From positions 1-64,000 of the forward strand of contig JBNKHE010000006.1 in NCBI GenBank assembly GCA_050290185.1: a stretch of DNA of 64,000 nucleotides. The letters are read 5' to 3'. Shown here piece by piece: positions 37,291 to 46,200 of this stretch. The position numbers were made by a program. Each line of letters begins with the position of its first letter. Position 1 is the stretch's first letter. The DNA is from Pontiella sp. GTDB taxonomy: Bacteria; Verrucomicrobiota; Kiritimatiellia; Kiritimatiellales; Pontiellaceae.

Positions 37291-40200
37291 TAGCCATGCC
37301 CTCCTTCCACCTCCATGTTACCACACCCGAAGGCAACATCTGGGACGATGATGCCGAAGCGGTTGTCGCATACGGCGTCGAGGGCTCGATGGGCATCCTC
37401 GCCAACCATGCGCCGATGATCACCGCACTGCAGCCCGGCGTGCTCAAGGTGCAGGGTGCGGACAAGACGCAGTATTATGCCGCCGGCGAAGGGATTCTTG
37501 AAGTGCGCACCGACAAGCAGGTCGTTCTGATCATCGACTATGCCGAAGCCTACGACACCGAGGCCGAGGCCAAGAAGCACCTCGATCCGGAGTAGGCTTC
37601 GCCCTATTTCACGGTCTTGCGAGTTTTCTGCACCAGCGTCTTCCACAACGCTTCCGGATCGTTGGCGGCAGCCAACAGGGCATCGCGCGCCTCCTTTTCG
37701 CGGAAGGTCTGCGACAGGCCGGACAAAAGCTTCAGGTAAAACGCGCTGGTCGCGGTCGGGATCACCATGAAGAAAAAGATCCGGGTGAGCGTACGGCCGG
37801 GACCGCCGAAGTTGATGCCCTTCTTATGGATACCCAGCGCCATGGTCAAACCGCCGCCTTCCACCCCGCGCACATGCGGGAAGGCCAGCCCGCAGTCCAC
37901 CGCCGTGCTCACGATGGCTTCGCGCTGCATGGCGAGGTCGAACAACTGGTCGGCGCTGACGACAAACGATTCCTGCTGCATGCGCTCGCACATTTCCCGC
38001 AGCACCTCTTCCGGCGTTGAGCCGGTCAGCGGCGCAACCATCAGCGACGGCGCCGAGAAGCGGGCAATGCCCATTTTCTGCTTTTCGCCATAGACGCGGC
38101 TGGTGCGTTCGCGGGCGACCACCTCGGAAGGAATGTAGAGGAAGCGGGTGCAGTTGCGGCAACGGTTCAGTTCGTCGGCGCGCAGCACTTCGTTGACCTG
38201 GCTTTTGGGCAGCTGGATGCCGCAGCCGGTGCAGTGGTCGTCGATGATCGGCACGACGGCTTCGGGATGCTTTTGCAGGAGCCGGTTGATATGCGTCTTG
38301 ACCGGTTGGGCGAGATCCGACCCCAACAGGGCGATGCTCTTTTCGAGCGCATCAAGCGGTGCCTTGGAGCGGGCGGCCTTGGTCTGCATGCGGGCCACGA
38401 TGAGTTCCTGCAACTGGATCAACTGGTTGATGGTTTTTCGGTTAGTCATGGTTATCCCTCCTCTACAATTTCCGATTGGTTTTCAATGATCGAACAGGCC
38501 CGAGCCAAGGCTTCGTCGATGCTTGGGCAGAAGTTTTCCGAACCGACAGCCTGAAGAAACCCGGATTGCCTGAAGACGGACATGGGCTGTTTCGTGACAC
38601 CGGAAAAGATCAGCCGCGTCTTCTGTCGCCAGCACTTTTGGTGCAACTCTTCGAGTACGTGCAGGCCGGTGGCATCGATGGTCGGCACGTTGCGGATGCG
38701 GATGATGAGCACGGAAACATTGTGCTCGACCTGATGCAGCGCATTCCAGAAGGTATCGGCCATGCCGAAAAAGAAGGGGCCCTCGACTTCGTAGACCTCG
38801 ACCCCCGGGGGAACGTCTCTGGTGGTAATGGACATCGGATCGAATTCGGGATCCTCGTCGCCCTTCAGATTGTTGGTGATCATGCTGACGTTGGCGATTT
38901 CGGACATACGGCGCATAAAGAGTAGCGACGAGAGCACAATACCGACTTGCACCGCCAAAGTAAGGTCCACGAGAACGGTCAAGCCAAAGGTGAGCAACAA
39001 AACCAGCTGATCGCTACGGGGTCCCTTGAGAATCGAGGCAAAGTGGCGGTGCTCGCTCATGTTGTAGCTTACCACCACGAGGATGCCGGCCAGCGACGCC
39101 AACGGAATTCGGGCCGCAACAGGAGCACAGAGCAACAAAATCAAGAGAAGCACACCGGCGTGGATCATGCCGGCGACCGGCGTCTTCGCACCGCTCTTGA
39201 CATTCGTAGCCGTGCGGGCGATTGCGCCCGTAGCTGGAATACCGCCAAAAAATACCCCGCCGATGTTGGCCAGTCCCTGCGCGATCAGTTCCGTATTCGG
39301 GCGGTGTTTACCGCCGATCATCCCGTCGGCAACCGTAGCAGACATCAGCGATTCAATGGCGGCGAGCAGCGCTACGGTGAAGGCTGCCGATACCAGCCCG
39401 CCCATCTGCCCGATATCAAGCGAAGGCAGGCCGGGCGATGGCAACATACGCGGTAGCTGGCCGAAGCGCCCGCCGATGGTTTCGACATCAAGGTTGAATA
39501 CTGCAACGGCGACTGTGGCCAGCACCATGGCAATCAGCATCCCCGGCAGGCGCGGAGCCAAGTGGTGCAGCAGGGCGATTATAAAAACCGTGCCAAGTCC
39601 GATGGCCGCAGTTGACGCGGAGAAGGATCCAAATGCGTGGAAATAGGCTCCCCACTTCGGGATGAATTCGGCGGGGACTTCGGCCATGCGCAATCCCAGG
39701 AGATCCTTGATCTGCGTGGAAAAGATGACGACAGCAATACCGGAGGTAAAGCCGGTGGTGACCGGGAAGGGAATGAAGCGGATCATGCCGCCGAGCTTGA
39801 AGACCCCGAAGAGAATCAGTATGACGCCGGCCATCAGCGTACACCAGGCGAGGCCGGCATAACCGTATTGCGCGACAATGCCGGAGACGATCACCACAAA
39901 GGCGCCGGTCGGCCCACCGATCTGGACCCGGCTGCCGCCGAGGAAGGCAATCAGAAATCCGGCAACGATGGCAGTGAACAGGCCGCGTTCGGGCGGCAGG
40001 CCGCTGGCGATGGCAAAGGCCATGGCCAGCGGCAGAGCTATGACGCCGACGGTCAGGCCTGCGATGCCGTCGGCGAGTAGCGTCTTAAGATTATAACCCT
40101 TTAGTAGCGTAAAGAGCTTGGGCTTGAACATAGTTCTCCTGAGTGCACTACATGAAGAATCTTACGTACAGATAGATGTGGGCCACGACCAGCGAGACGA

Positions 40201-43200: not shown

Positions 43201-46200
43201 AGGCGATCGTGCAGCGGTTGCATTACATCGCCAACCACCAGCCACAGCCAGGTATCGCGGTCGATCAAAACCTCTTTGAGCATGTCGAACGTCAAGACCC
43301 CGACAATGGTACCTTCCCCGGTAACGACGGGATACACGAGAGTGTCCTGCTCGGCAAAGTGCTGCACCACTTCGGCCAGCGGCGTACCCTCTTGCAAGGG
43401 TACGATGCCGGTATCAACAACATCCGACACCTTCAGCTCGGCCATCACGTCTTCTTCGGTCACATTACGGCCAATTTCCCCCGCCTTCTTGATCGCCAGC
43501 TTGGCAAACGCGGGGCCGATCAGCTGGACGCACAGGGTGGTTGCCGTGACGGTGAAGATGATCATGTCGCCCAGGCTCATCCCCTCGACCACCTGGATAT
43601 GCTGGAGGTTCTGGCTGGCGACGATCGACAGACCAACCGCCACGCCGCCCTGCGCGAAAAGAGCCATACCCATATAATTCTGGACCGGCTTTTCGGCCTT
43701 GGAAATGCGGGCGCCCAGGTAGGACCCAACCCATTTACCGATACTGCGCATCAGCACATAGGCCACCACCAGTCCCCAGAGCCAAGGCGGCATGTTGCCC
43801 AGCGAAAGACGCGCGCCAACGAGCACGAAGAAAATAATGTAGATCGGCGTCGAAAAAGACCGGATGACCTCGAACAACTGCTTACTGCGCTTGGGCGCCA
43901 GATTGATCAACACAATGCCGACCGACATCGTAGCCAGAATGACATCCATGCCGAAAGCCACCGCCAAACCGATGCACAGCAGGATGATGCCAATCGAAAT
44001 CCCCAGTCGTTTTTCTGTCTGGGGCATATAGTGCATCATGGCGTTAAGCACAAAGCCGGATGCGACCCCCAGAACGATGGCGCCACCGAGTTCGATCAAG
44101 GTGTGAAGCATGGTTAGCCCAACCGATTCGCCGCCACTGTTCGCCAGAATCGAGGCGATGCTGGTGCCCAGTCCGTAGAGCGTCATGGCCAGGGCGTCGT
44201 CGAGCGCCACGATGGCAACGATGGCGGTGGTCAGCACCCCAGCGGAGCGGTATTCCCAGAGCACGTCGATCGTCGAGGCCGGGTCCGTGGCCGAGGCAAT
44301 CGCCCCGAAAACGATGCCGGCCGCAATCGCCATGATCCAGTCGTGACCGACAAAATAGACGATCACCGTCGATGCAATCCCCACCAGAAAGAACGCCGCC
44401 AGCCCCTCGCCCAGCAGAATGGCCGTGAACTGCTTGCCGTATTTTTTGAAGATGCTTCCACTCAGCTCGCCGCCCACCAGAAAGCCGATCAGCCCCAGCG
44501 CAAAGTTGTTGAAGGGCCGCAGCGCTGCGATGTCTCCGGGATGCAGCAAGCCCAGTCCGGTATCGCCAATCAGTACGCCGACGACAATGTAGCCGACAAC
44601 CTGTGGAATGTTCAGGCGCTGGAAGATCCATGCGCCAACCACTCCACCGGCCACGCAAATGCCCAGCACCGCTAAAACGCCAAGGTGGAAATCAGGCATC
44701 GCTTTACCCCTCTGCCATTAGTTGTGAATAGATGAAGGCGGGATCGTCGGAAGCAATGATCTTCTCGCGAGTGGCGCCATCCTTCAGACGACTGCTCACC
44801 GCCGAGAGTGTCCGGATATACTTGGTGTGCTGGTCTTGGCGGGCTGCCAGCATACAGACAATCTGCACCGGTTGGTTGTCGAGCGAGGAATAGCCGGAAA
44901 TGGGTCGCTTGCTGACCGCCACCGCCATGACCAGATCAGACACGGAATCGATGCGCACATGCGGCACGCCAATGCCAAAGCCAATGCCGGTGCTCATCAG
45001 TTCTTCTCGGGCAAAAATGCCGTTAAGCAGCTCGTCCCGGTTGTGCACCAACGATGAGGTTGCCAATAGATCAACCAGTTTCGTCAACACAGTCTTCTTG
45101 TCCACCTCTTCGAGAATGGAAATTCGTTCCGGGGTCAACAGGGAGGATCCGCCCTTACCAGTCGAAGCAATCGCAGGAGCCGACTTGCTGGAAAGCCGTG
45201 TGTTGACCCAGTTTTCCACATCCTCGCGCTTGAAGCGCCAAGTCGTACCCAGCTTACCACCGGGCAGGTCACCCTTTTGCGCCCAGTCATACACCGTTCG
45301 CTCAGAAACCCGCAAATATGCGGCCACTTCCTCAATTGTCATGATTTCGTGCATATACGCATCCCTCCGTGAATATTCGCGGGAAATTACATCATACCGC
45401 ACTGTATGCAACATAAATGTTGGGTTTGTTTCGAACTGCACTTTATCCTGTTCATTGTCCTCGCTGGATTTTATCTTGCCCTTTTAACCGTTGAGGGTCG
45501 ATTTCCGTGAGTAAAGTGCCGTTTTGCCATCTTCATTTCCATACCTGCTACAGCCTGCTGGACAGTGCTGTGAAGATTAAGGATGCCGTCAAGGCGGCCA
45601 AGGACATGGGGATGGATTATCTGGCAATGACCGACCATGGCGTGCTGTATGGCGCGGTCGAATTCTATAAAACCGCCCGGAATGCCGGCATCAAACCGAT
45701 CATCGGCTGCGAGGTCTACGTGGCGCGCCACGGAATCGAGGAGCGAAGCTCCCAGCGCAACAACCTGCACCTCGTCCTGCTGGCCGAAACGCAGGAAGGC
45801 TACGAGAATCTCGTCAAGCTCGTATCCCATGCCCACCTCGAAGGCGTATACTACAAACCACGCATTGACAAGGAATTGATACGAAAACACAGCAAAGGAC
45901 TCATCGGCCTCTCCGCCTGCCTGCGCGGCGAGGTGAATGAGGCCTGTATGAATGGCGATATCGACAGGGCCGAGGAGCTGGCCCGGGAATATTCCGACAT
46001 TCTGGGTGAGAACAACTTTTTCCTCGAACTGCAGGACCATGGAATTGCCGATGAAAAAACGGCCCGGAAGAACATGCTGGAGGTGGCCAGACGCACCGGC
46101 TTGCCGCTGGTGGCAACCAACGATGTCCACTATGTAAGGAAAGAACACTCGGAAGCACACGATGTGCTGATCTGCCTGCAGCGCGGCGACCTCGTCGCCG

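Follow-up and report, generated by a model that had tools for sequence, protein, structure and literature searches.

Why does a genome in which no permease of the phosphotransferase system (PTS) is detected keep three EIIA domains in one 8-kb block of secondary carriers? The block belongs to Pontiella sp., a marine member of the order Kiritimatiellales (genome completeness 95.5%, 163 contigs), and lies in a 64,000-nt stretch of DNA that we call the window. We think it probable, from sequence comparison, that this is a regulatory-only PTS of the Ntr type, whose EIIA switches would act, in cis or in trans, on partner carriers.

A predicted modular operon

ORF and Pfam reading resolved the block (37604-45354) into seven ORFs, all on the minus strand, with intergenic gaps of 2-16 nt. 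They are listed here from operon gene 1, with two features outside the block; assignments are from Pfam except for the upstream element, which is a sequence reading.

45384..45411, minus strand: promoter-like element TTGCAT-N16-TAATTT, upstream of the operon
44704..45354, minus strand: HTH_17 (excisionase/MerR-like) + PTS_EIIA_2 (HTH-EIIA), 216 aa, operon gene 1
43026..44699, minus strand: Na_H_Exchanger (cation/proton antiporter) with C-terminal CBS pair, 557 aa
42537..43022, minus strand: stand-alone CBS (Bateman-type) protein, 161 aa
41606..42523, minus strand: PTS_EIIA_2 + CBS pair (EIIA-CBS), 305 aa
40148..41590, minus strand: CitMHS / ArsB-NhaD-superfamily carrier, 480 aa
38452..40131, minus strand: SulP-family anion carrier, Sulfate_transp + STAS, 559 aa
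37604..38449, minus strand: Zn_ribbon_9 (CT398/HP0958-like) + PTS_EIIA_2 (zinc-ribbon-EIIA), 281 aa
27705..29564, minus strand: APC amino-acid permease with C-terminal PTS_EIIA_2, 619 aa, same window, outside the block

The genome-wide survey's note had described three EIIAs here among sulfate, citrate and Na+/H+ carriers bearing STAS or CBS domains. The gene content stands, except that the CitMHS carrier has neither a STAS nor a CBS domain. Inside the block, EIIA domains and carriers are on separate proteins, so any control there would be exerted in trans.

Comparison across genomes indicates that the block is a conserved operon assembled from modules. The first would consist of HTH-EIIA and the antiporter-CBS protein, the second of the CBS-only protein, EIIA-CBS and the CitMHS carrier, and the third, confined to the window's family, of SulP-STAS and zinc-ribbon-EIIA. 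HTH-EIIA is followed by exchanger-CBS at 18 of 20 loci of the order and at 9 of 40 loci of other lineages, including Planctomycetota and Victivallales. The stand-alone CBS gene was found at 18 of the 20 loci of the order and the SulP carrier at 13. A Planctomycetota locus (L115) encodes a 159-aa CBS protein in the position of the block's 161-aa one, and the five-gene core also occurs in one Planctomycetota genome.

The ORF of the HTH-EIIA gene spans 44704-45441; the start most likely lies at 45354, because relatives are about 216 aa long and GGAGG stands upstream. Its HTH segment (MHEIMTIEEVA...WRFKR) is near-invariant in 17 of 19 frames, the other two (L061, L064) stopping short of the segment. 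Upstream regions aligned from 18 loci share the consensus TTGCA..T..CGGTTTG..GTAGTTT..CG, and the element at 45384..45411 is a candidate promoter. The closest solved relatives of HTH-EIIA are the PtsN structures 1a6j, 4gqx, 3urr and 2a0j, and PtsN proteins are the closest solved structures for all three block EIIAs. MtlR and LicR are PRD/EIIA-containing transcription activators. In them, as in HTH-EIIA, a PTS_EIIA_2-type domain is coupled to a DNA-binding one, through which PTS phosphorylation could act on transcription. HTH-EIIA differs in being a protein of only 216 aa; its HTH_17 is of the excisionase type, and PRD, Mga and EIIB-like domains are absent.

EIIA-CBS and its CitMHS partner

In EIIA-CBS, R56 and H72 are unchanged in 47 of 47 sequences, and the best Foldseek match is E. 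coli PtsN (1a6j, TM 0.84). A strongly conserved insert of about 30 residues (about 211-239) separates the two CBS motifs; in the AlphaFold2 model (mean pLDDT 85) this motif falls in a low-confidence linker. The modelled CBS pair superposes on the nucleotide-binding CBS pairs of CorB/CNNM, MgtE, OpuA and ClC. The block exchanger, with its C-terminal CBS pair, resembles such CBS-regulated carriers; unlike them, the operon places one CBS pair, with the 30-residue insert, on a separate soluble EIIA-joined protein.

The CitMHS gene lies directly downstream of EIIA-CBS at 51 of 60 loci (49 distinct contigs among the 51), with gaps of -4 to 201 nt. These loci come from Kiritimatiellales, Victivallales/Lentisphaerae, Planctomycetota, Hydrogenedentota, Myxococcota, Nitrospirales and others. 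EIIA-CBS homologues number 405 cluster representatives at E<=1e-30. The best 150 of these are all <=322 aa and include no fusion to a carrier, and a search for longer EIIA-CBS forms returned nothing, which is weak evidence. For the CitMHS carrier itself, the best NCBIfam matches (MamN, ArsB, DASS) were all under cut-off.

SulP and zinc-ribbon-EIIA

The SulP carrier exceeds the TIGR00815 sulP cut-off (393.1 against 380.45) and scores below that of DauA (510.8 against 614). Its neighbour at 37604..38449 is a genus-level duplicate of a class-wide gene: of the phylum's 301 genomes, 102 encode a full-length zinc-ribbon-EIIA homologue, and almost all families of the class are represented. At 30 of 30 loci CxxC...CxxC, Arg and His do not vary, and the Zn_ribbon_9 match reaches 34.7 bits where the cut-off is 29.1. 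Neighbours vary across the class and SulP adjacency was seen only in the window's family, which makes this the weakest module. The second copy in the genome follows pntAB, with a radical-SAM gene between it and its exchanger.

CT398 (CdsZ) of Chlamydia and HP0958 of Helicobacter are coiled-coil + Zn_ribbon_9 proteins reported as sigma-54 binders. Zinc-ribbon-EIIA shares their N-terminal helical segment and CxxC...CxxC ribbon, and its PDB matches are 2a0j and CT398 (4ilo, phmmer E 4e-4). It differs in carrying an EIIA domain and in its CdsZ equivalog score (24.5 against 275). The genome has rpoN, on contig 1.

A PTS relay without a detectable permease

Genome profile searches bore out the survey's inventory of two Enzyme I genes (PEP-utilisers_N, one with GAF), one HPr kinase and six PTS-HPr genes; the His15 and Ser46 equivalents are intact in all six. 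PTS_EIIA_2 domains number eight rather than the seven claimed, the extra one, on a contig of 534 bp, being a C-terminal fragment similar to the tail of the exchanger-EIIA fusion. All eight keep the P-H motif, as had been stated of every EIIA. None of these proteins reaches the NCBIfam PtsN or FruA cut-offs. The claimed absence of EIIB, EIIC and EIID also held at this completeness: PTS_EIIC, EII-Sor, EIIC-GAT, PTS_EIIB, PTSIIB_sorb, EIIA-man, EIID-AGA, PTS_EIIC_2, EII-GUT and PTS_EIIA_1 gave no match in the genome, and PTS_IIB gave a single sub-threshold one of 12 bits.

The hprK-ptsH-ptsI cluster comes after lptA-lptB-hpf, and the GAF-EI gene adjoins a P-II gene. The EIIA genes lie on contigs 2, 4, 6, 14 and 126, none beside rpoN. 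The six HPr genes have mutually unrelated contexts, and the idea that these paralogues are dedicated to particular carriers finds no support in relatives on <=10 contigs carrying the same operon, where EIIA_2 and HPr number 10 and 2 (G004, G014), 11 and 2 (G055) or 10 and 3 (G005). PTS_EIIA_2 is present throughout the order (89 of 89 genomes, this one counted), correcting an earlier 87 of 88. EIIC was detected in 11 of the 89 (two among the 52 other members of the genus, nine among the 33 of a sister genus), so the lineage is not uniformly permease-less.

EIIA domains tied to secondary carriers

Seven of the eight EIIA domains are fused to a secondary carrier or lie within two genes of one, the eighth being the fragment; these data support a non-random tie. 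Four of the five Na_H_Exchanger genes are EIIA-linked by fusion, adjacency or a distance of two genes, and the lone EIIA precedes a 561-aa exchanger gene both here and in 10 of the 12 relatives compared. EIIA-carrier pairings are conserved across families and phyla. Exchanger-EIIA frames are retained even in relatives of 0.9-1.3 Mb with only 2-3 EIIA domains.

Fusions to transporters number only two, exchanger-EIIA and amino-acid permease-EIIA (three with the fragment), the other EIIAs being joined to HTH, CBS or zinc-ribbon domains. How common such fusions are elsewhere, which the survey had left uncounted, could be checked: of the 30 closest ESM Atlas clusters, 15 have the exchanger+EIIA architecture, most often from Myxococcota, Planctomycetota and Cloacimonadota. 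Among the matches listed, 120 of 120 permease-EIIA homologues have both domains, with H530 conserved in all 115 sequences compared and R514 in 112 of them; Zixibacteria and KSB1 records show the combination too, and JGI already annotates it under that name. Judged from these records, cis EIIA-carrier fusions are common in databases and are no speciality of this genome. The survey overstated the case for cis-regulation: no fusion joins a carrier in the block, and such fusions are widespread.

A probable regulatory relay and its alternatives

In the reading we favour, phosphate would pass from PEP to Enzyme I (the plain EI of the hprK-ptsH-ptsI cluster or GAF-EI), then to HPr and on to EIIA. The terminal EIIA domains would be phospho-switches, each tied to a secondary carrier as fusion or operon partner, and their phosphorylation state would set carrier activity through protein-protein contact. 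It would report the PEP/pyruvate ratio, nitrogen status (via GAF) and how far HPr kinase has phosphorylated Ser46 of HPr. CBS and STAS modules would contribute nucleotide or anion sensing, and HTH-EIIA would relay the EIIA signal to operon transcription. The template is YcgO, a CPA1 antiporter of E. coli whose cytosolic domains are bound by unphosphorylated PtsN. The sequences themselves show the domain make-up, the conserved His and Arg, the missing permease parts and the conserved pairing of genes; that phosphate is transferred, that the proteins bind and in which direction they regulate is what we infer. Of the survey's view of a PTS turned into a signalling network onto transporters, the lack of a detectable permease and the carrier ties remain, without the HPr dedication. 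If true, this would be a hard-wired variant of the known PtsN control over potassium carriers.

Alternatively, the block EIIAs could be general PtsN-like regulators with many targets elsewhere and no direct carrier contact, HTH-EIIA being the operon's transcription factor and the carriers its regulon. The near-invariant HTH segment with the conserved promoter-like element upstream, the class-wide zinc-ribbon-EIIA with variable neighbours and the missing EIIA-CBS/carrier fusion are consistent with such co-regulation, as are several unrelated targets of E. coli PtsN reported in extracts of PMC13104625. We consider it unlikely, since the same EIIA type is truly fused to exchanger and permease in this genome and many phyla, and the EIIA-CBS/CitMHS pair is kept across phyla with gaps of few bases even where the locus lacks HTH-EIIA.

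Eukaryotic SLC4/Band 3 carriers have an EIIA-like cytoplasmic domain said to be phosphorylation-independent, and the term PTS_EIIA_2 appears in two SLC4 papers. The Pontiella domains might likewise stand outside the relay as structural or ligand-binding regulators, which would agree with their scores below the PtsN and FruA cut-offs. The His and Arg of EIIA-CBS and zinc-ribbon-EIIA, invariant over wide divergence and nearly matched in permease-EIIA, make this improbable, as does the upkeep of both Enzyme I genes, HPr kinase and six His15-bearing HPr with no permease to serve. Least probable is a conventional sugar PTS permease in the 4.5% of the genome that the assembly lacks, which would make the relay not purely regulatory. 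The fragmented assembly and the EIIC of some relatives leave room for one; against it stand the ten unmatched families and the 50 of 52 other genus genomes without EIIC, including G014, G055, G005 and G004 on 1-10 contigs, and the transporter-linked EIIA modules would stay in any case.

Parts of the favoured reading are already published. Extracts report a permease-less Ntr-type PTS in Planctomycetales, Chlamydiales and Spirochaetales (PMC13104625), hence within the superphylum, and PtsN binding and inhibiting the CPA1 antiporter YcgO (PMC11808508; bioRxiv 10.64898/2026.08.14.744764). What appears new is the conserved modular operon and the EIIA-carrier pairings across phyla. Like PtsP-PtsO-PtsN of Proteobacteria, which controls TrkA, KdpD and YcgO, the Pontiella system has no permease part, its EIIAs share the Fru/Mtl/Ntr fold along with the Arg and His, and its putative targets are Na_H_Exchanger-family cation carriers with cytosolic regulatory domains. 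It differs in having eight EIIAs instead of one, none at the PtsN equivalog score or beside rpoN, in its HPr kinase, and in having EIIA fused to its presumed target, or in a predicted operon with it, in place of one diffusible regulator. Its exchangers bear CBS or EIIA domains, unlike YcgO with RCK+CorC. Extracts of a 2023 review (PMC10710835) describe LacS as regulated via a fused EIIA-Glc-like domain and as the sole bacterial transporter example regulated by direct phosphorylation. LacS, the lactose carrier of Streptococcus thermophilus (GPH family, HPr-phosphorylated EIIA-Glc-like C-terminus), uses an EIIA of the PTS_EIIA_1 superfamily, absent from the Pontiella genome, where the carriers are APC/CPA and no sugar PTS is available for cross-talk; common to both is a secondary carrier with a built-in EIIA, which in LacS acts in cis.

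Results

The operon and its surroundings

The block at 37604-45354 proved to be as the genome-wide survey's note had placed it, with seven minus-strand open reading frames (ORFs), three of them encoding EIIA proteins, spaced 2-16 nt apart. The Pfam content of its genes, in transcription order, and of the window's fourth EIIA protein is as follows.

44704-45354, minus strand, gene 1: HTH_17 and PTS_EIIA_2 (HTH-EIIA)
43026-44699, minus strand, gene 2: Na_H_Exchanger and a CBS pair (exchanger-CBS)
42537-43022, minus strand, gene 3: CBS-only protein
41606-42523, minus strand, gene 4: PTS_EIIA_2 and a CBS pair (EIIA-CBS)
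40148-41590, minus strand, gene 5: CitMHS
38452-40131, minus strand, gene 6: Sulfate_transp and STAS (SulP-STAS)
37604-38449, minus strand, gene 7: Zn_ribbon_9 and PTS_EIIA_2 (zinc-ribbon-EIIA)
27705-29564: amino-acid permease with a C-terminal EIIA, the fourth EIIA domain of the window (permease-EIIA)

The start codon of HTH-EIIA is most likely at 45354 and not at 45441, because its relatives have ~216 aa, the database form has 216 aa and GGAGG precedes that ATG. Throughout the order Kiritimatiellales its HTH_17 part, residues 1-50, is nearly the same, whereas the EIIA part falls to 55-85% identity, which implies that the binding target would be very constrained. Before the operon lies a conserved promoter-like element, TTGCAT-N16-TAATTT (45384-45411). 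A sigma-54 promoter, whose consensus has a GG-to-GC spacing of 10, was rejected here and the element was read as sigma-70-like, because this spacing is 12-13 nt in the aligned upstream regions.

We also looked for structured RNAs; at the gathering threshold, Rfam matched neither the window nor any of three related loci. A gap of ~430 bp between the exchanger and CBS genes of relatives was rejected as an RNA, as it holds a poorly conserved ORF of ~105 aa. This ORF, whose product begins with a hydrophobic helix and has an acidic tail, lies between the exchanger-CBS and CBS-only genes in loci L049-L061, L065 and L066. It is missing from the window (site 43022-43026) and from the three closest relatives (L062-L064), where the two genes are 3 nt and up to ~70 nt apart, respectively.

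The block is flanked by the end of the F-type ATP synthase operon on one side and by dnaE on the other. The end of the atp operon (30769-37595) abuts the block convergently in the window and in two close relatives. At a Planctomycetota locus (L115, 10588-13240) ATP synthase genes read in the same direction come after the five-gene core, namely an AtpI-like gene, the a subunit and a 249-aa c subunit with three matched stretches. The proximity of ATP synthase genes to the operon in both places may be a coincidence.

The phosphotransferase system of the genome and the order

The genome (3.58 Mb; 163 contigs, of which the window belongs to contig 6; completeness 95.5%) holds the general components that had been described for it: two Enzyme I genes, one with a GAF domain (GAF-EI), one HPr kinase gene and six HPr genes. 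GAF-EI has 763 aa and its gene adjoins a P-II gene. The second Enzyme I belongs to an lptA-lptB-hpf-hprK-ptsH-ptsI cluster on contig 3 (302-306 kb), in which lptA-like and lptB-like genes and hpf are directly followed by the three PTS genes; we take this lpt-hpf-PTS layout to be that of the proteobacterial rpoN region. Unlike the ptsN gene neighbourhood, rpoN-hpf-ptsN-(rapZ)-npr, the cluster holds neither an EIIA gene nor rpoN. The six HPr proteins are mutually divergent, and all keep the equivalents of His15 and Ser46.

Eight PTS_EIIA_2 matches were detected (contigs 2, 4, 6, 14 and 126), one more than the seven domains previously counted. The extra match is a C-terminal fragment at bases 23-346 of the 534-bp contig 126. 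It is close to, yet distinct from, the tail of an exchanger-EIIA fusion on contig 14, and represents either another paralogue of the fusion or a strain variant that assembly collapsed out. At 95.5% completeness the genome gave no match for PTS_EIIC, EII-Sor, EIIC-GAT, PTS_EIIB, PTSIIB_sorb, EIIA-man, EIID-AGA, PTS_EIIC_2, EII-GUT or PTS_EIIA_1, and the sole PTS_IIB match, at 12 bits, was under the cut-off; the reported lack of EIIB, EIIC and EIID is thus upheld. With GAF-EI, six HPr and eight EIIA domains, this is a regulatory, permease-less PTS of the Ntr kind.

Across the order, PTS_EIIA_2 occurs in all 89 genomes with 1-13 matches each, so that the near-universal presence claimed earlier stands and the count of 87 of 88 does not. 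Frames of ~570-600 aa with a C-terminal EIIA recur, including in genomes of 0.9-1.3 Mb that keep just 2-3 EIIA domains. EIIC was found in 11 of the 89 genomes. Since it is carried by 2 of the genus's 52 other genomes, against 9 of 33 in a sister genus, loss is the rule in the genus and the order is not uniformly permease-less. The sporadic PTS_EIIC frames have ~600 aa (for example G084:C73, G059:C13, G077:C30, G060:C43, G063:C211 and G083:C33, as genome and contig), and at a distance of 2-3 kb there are HPr matches that form part of longer frames (835-926 aa). These loci look like fructose-type permeases with a multi-domain phosphoryl-transfer protein, and were possibly acquired horizontally.

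HPr is present in at least one copy in 88 of the 89 genomes, the usual number being two, which puts the six copies here at the top of the range. The survey's note had proposed HPr paralogues dedicated to individual EIIA domains. The number of HPr does not scale with that of EIIA: relatives that carry the operon and are assembled on at most 10 contigs have 10-11 EIIA matches and 2-3 HPr, and the six HPr genes here lie in unrelated contexts. A private HPr for each EIIA is therefore unsupported as a principle, although the HPr proteins of this one genome may be specialised.

The EIIA domains resemble PtsN and are not its orthologues

All eight EIIA domains scored 62-124 bits with PF00359 (curated cut-off 27 bits), and all eight have the P-H motif with the phosphorylatable His, as had been reported. 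The catalytic His and an upstream Arg are invariant in 47 of 47 EIIA-CBS and 30 of 30 zinc-ribbon-EIIA sequences; among permease-EIIA homologues, after removal of six shorter sequences, all 115 retain the His and 112 of the 115 the Arg. The nearest solved structures of the three block EIIAs are PtsN/EIIA-Ntr (3urr, 4gqx, 2a0j and 1a6j), not sugar-specific IIA, and for one protein, EIIA-CBS, an AF2 model shows the EIIA-Ntr/Mtl fold. The window's four EIIA proteins reached 32-61 bits with the PtsN equivalogs TIGR01419 and NF008145, below their cut-offs of 138.7 and 221 bits, and no EIIA gene of the genome adjoins rpoN (contig 1). By fold and closest relatives these proteins are thus Ntr-like, without being PtsN orthologues.

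The operon is built of EIIA-carrier units

Block proteins were compared by tblastn with 20 loci of the order, picked by an EIIA-CBS match, some of which end at contig ends. CitMHS adjoined EIIA-CBS in all 20, HTH-EIIA followed by exchanger-CBS was found in 18 and the CBS-only gene also in 18, SulP-STAS in 13 and zinc-ribbon-EIIA in nine. An EIIA-CBS alignment scan, with one genome per species, gave 79 loci. Full-length relatives of 29-44% identity occur in Victivallales/Lentisphaerae, Planctomycetota, Hydrogenedentota, Coatesbacteria, Myxococcales, Bradymonadia, Nitrospirales and others.

We then considered 60 loci, the 20 of the order and L102-L141. In 51 of them a complete CitMHS gene comes after a complete EIIA-CBS gene in the same orientation, with gaps of -4 to 201 nt; two of these are duplicate contigs, leaving 49 distinct contigs. 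Seven of the other nine have a CitMHS match that is truncated where the contig ends or escaped the ORF rule, and two (L130 and L131) have no CitMHS match. Nine of the 40 loci L102-L141 have HTH-EIIA and exchanger-CBS upstream; seven of these belong to Planctomycetota and one each to Victivallales and Kiritimatiellales. One Planctomycetota genome has the complete five-gene core, with a CBS-only gene of 159 aa. These EIIA-carrier pairings are kept across loci, and thus the block consists of units of one EIIA protein and one carrier. No EIIA of the block is fused to a carrier, so that any control there would act in trans.

The EIIA-CBS model has a mean pLDDT of 85, with high values in residues 1-151. 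Its top Foldseek match is E. coli PtsN (1a6j, TM 0.84), and its second half superposes on the nucleotide-binding CBS pairs of CorB, MgtE and OpuCA. Between the two CBS motifs runs a nearly invariant stretch of 30 residues, LF..GLPDFF..LKSVSFIAEFDPFEKYF, which is the sole low-confidence part of the model and a candidate docking element. At E<=1e-30 there are 405 representatives of the family; none of the best 150 exceeds 322 aa, so EIIA-CBS is a stand-alone family. No protein fusing EIIA-CBS to a carrier came to light; a search for one among longer homologues scored 0 of 3583 candidates, which is weak evidence. Complex prediction for CitMHS and EIIA-CBS (47-row alignments, no controls) gave ipSAE values of 0.08 and 0.15 against a mark of 0.32 and is evidence neither for nor against binding.

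Carriers and EIIA genes elsewhere in the genome

The sole stand-alone EIIA, correctly singled out before, has 149 aa; 8 nt separate its gene from the 561-aa Na_H_Exchanger gene downstream, and Mrp antiporter genes lie beside them. Of 12 relatives, which represent three families of the order, 10 have the counterpart of this exchanger directly after the EIIA orthologue, and in the other two a second small EIIA takes its place. The fusion on contig 14 has 571 aa. Altogether, four of the five Na_H_Exchanger genes of the genome are fused to, adjoin or lie two genes from an EIIA gene. With ~3000 genes and seven separate EIIA genes, we roughly estimate, rather than compute as a test, a chance of ~1% per exchanger for such proximity. 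The linkage of EIIA to carriers is real and far from chance.

The block exchanger scored 122.7 bits with Na_H_Exchanger (cut-off 26.2), and its only NCBIfam match is a weak one to the CPA2 subfamily (42 against 238). The sulfate-transporter-like protein belongs to SulP (TIGR00815 393.1, cut-off 380.45; C-terminal STAS 56 bits) and fell below the DauA and BicA equivalogs. The CitMHS protein (40148-41590) has, at residues ~45-105, a low-complexity insert of ~50 residues rich in Ala, Glu, His and Val; the extra length is shared only by its two closest relatives (480 and 489 aa), other homologues having 423-454 aa. Three distant metagenomic relatives of permease-EIIA (P0118-P0120, ~700 aa) also bear TrkA_C (RCK_C), a domain type through which PtsN reportedly acts on K+ carriers.

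Zinc-ribbon-EIIA scored 34.7 bits with Zn_ribbon_9 (cut-off 29.1) and 24.5 with the CdsZ equivalog (cut-off 275). Its zinc-ribbon part resembles CT398/CdsZ, a protein reported to bind sigma-54, and the genome has rpoN; a link to sigma-54 may exist. Although its place in the operon would make it a partner of SulP, it may rather be a general PtsN-like regulator of these bacteria: the gene is near-universal in the class and mostly single-copy, its neighbours change, and the module with SulP is limited to the window's family. In 23 loci of other families it adjoins none of pntB, the radical SAM gene, the 389-aa exchanger gene or SulP. The second zinc-ribbon-EIIA gene of this genome comes after pntAB, with one radical-SAM gene between it and the 389-aa exchanger gene. 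In six loci from other families of the class (L179, L181, L182, L183, L188 and L190) zinc-ribbon-EIIA is flanked by a divergently transcribed second EIIA-domain gene, whose product is 22-30% identical to the EIIA part of zinc-ribbon-EIIA.

Discussion

The purpose of the nitrogen-related PTS is debated, and the many reported PtsN targets come from few Proteobacteria. Here the genome itself spells out the partners of one type of EIIA, which occurs as a fusion both with a cation/proton antiporter and with an amino-acid permease; in several phyla, conserved two-gene modules also join it to a second antiporter, an antiporter with CBS domains and a CitMHS carrier. Fusions and modules together give Rosetta-stone-style support for carrier control as a core and ancient role of the relay.

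The observed domain content, conserved residues and gene linkage suggest a hard-wired, multi-module, Ntr-type regulatory PTS that probably acts on secondary carriers. PEP-derived phosphate would pass from Enzyme I or GAF-EI through HPr, with its Ser46 under the control of HPr kinase, to the EIIA domains, and we infer that each of these would bind and modulate its fused or neighbouring carrier according to its phosphorylation state. Nucleotide or anion signals would enter through the CBS and STAS modules, and HTH-EIIA may couple the signal to transcription from the promoter-like element at 45384-45411. The model draws on two published precedents. In E. coli, the CPA1 K+/H+ antiporter YcgO is inhibited by unphosphorylated PtsN, which binds to the cytosolic RCK/CorC region of the antiporter (PMC11808508; bioRxiv 10.64898/2026.08.14.744764). 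The LacS carrier is regulated via a fused EIIA-Glc-like domain phosphorylated by HPr, which a 2023 review calls the only case of a bacterial transporter controlled by direct phosphorylation (PMC10710835). LacS has an EIIA-Glc-type domain (PF00358) on a GPH carrier, whereas this genome has no PF00358 and bears PF00359 on APC and CPA carriers; by analogy the fused carriers here would work like LacS, without being members of its type.

As observations, the fusions have precedents, and so does a PTS without permeases in the superphylum. Among the 30 nearest ESM Atlas clusters, 15 combine exchanger with EIIA, and for CBS with EIIA the figure is 25 of 30. At JGI the permease fusion already goes by 'amino acid transporter/... 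IIA component (Ntr-type)'; HTH-EIIA is a 'PTS sugar transporter subunit IIA' at NCBI. According to a 2026 review, Planctomycetales, Chlamydiales and Spirochaetales have PTS-Ntr and almost no sugar PTS (PMC13104625). Our literature search returned no paper on the PTS of Kiritimatiellota, on PTS_EIIA_2 fused to CPA or APC carriers, or on the operon, and an earlier mention may exist; in the same review and in both YcgO papers, 'fused' and 'fusion' never mean such fusions.

A wider reading seems to us possible and rather doubtful: that in the PVC group and several other phyla the Ntr-type PTS mainly equips secondary carriers with phospho-switch subunits of their own. EIIA-CBS, joined by the small CBS protein, would then be a detachable regulatory subunit of CitMHS/IT-superfamily carriers, docking via the nearly invariant, flexible LF..GLPDFF..LKSVSFIAEFDPFEKYF and gating by His phosphorylation and adenine-nucleotide binding. 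If so, PTS control would reach beyond K+ carriers to anion, IT-family and amino-acid carriers, and zinc-ribbon-EIIA would be the class-wide counterpart of PtsN.

The partner pairs are concrete and testable, and include carrier families never linked to the PTS (CitMHS, SulP and APC). Homologues are present in the named Pontiella records P. sulfatireligans F21, P. desulfatans and P. agarivorans, so experiments look feasible.
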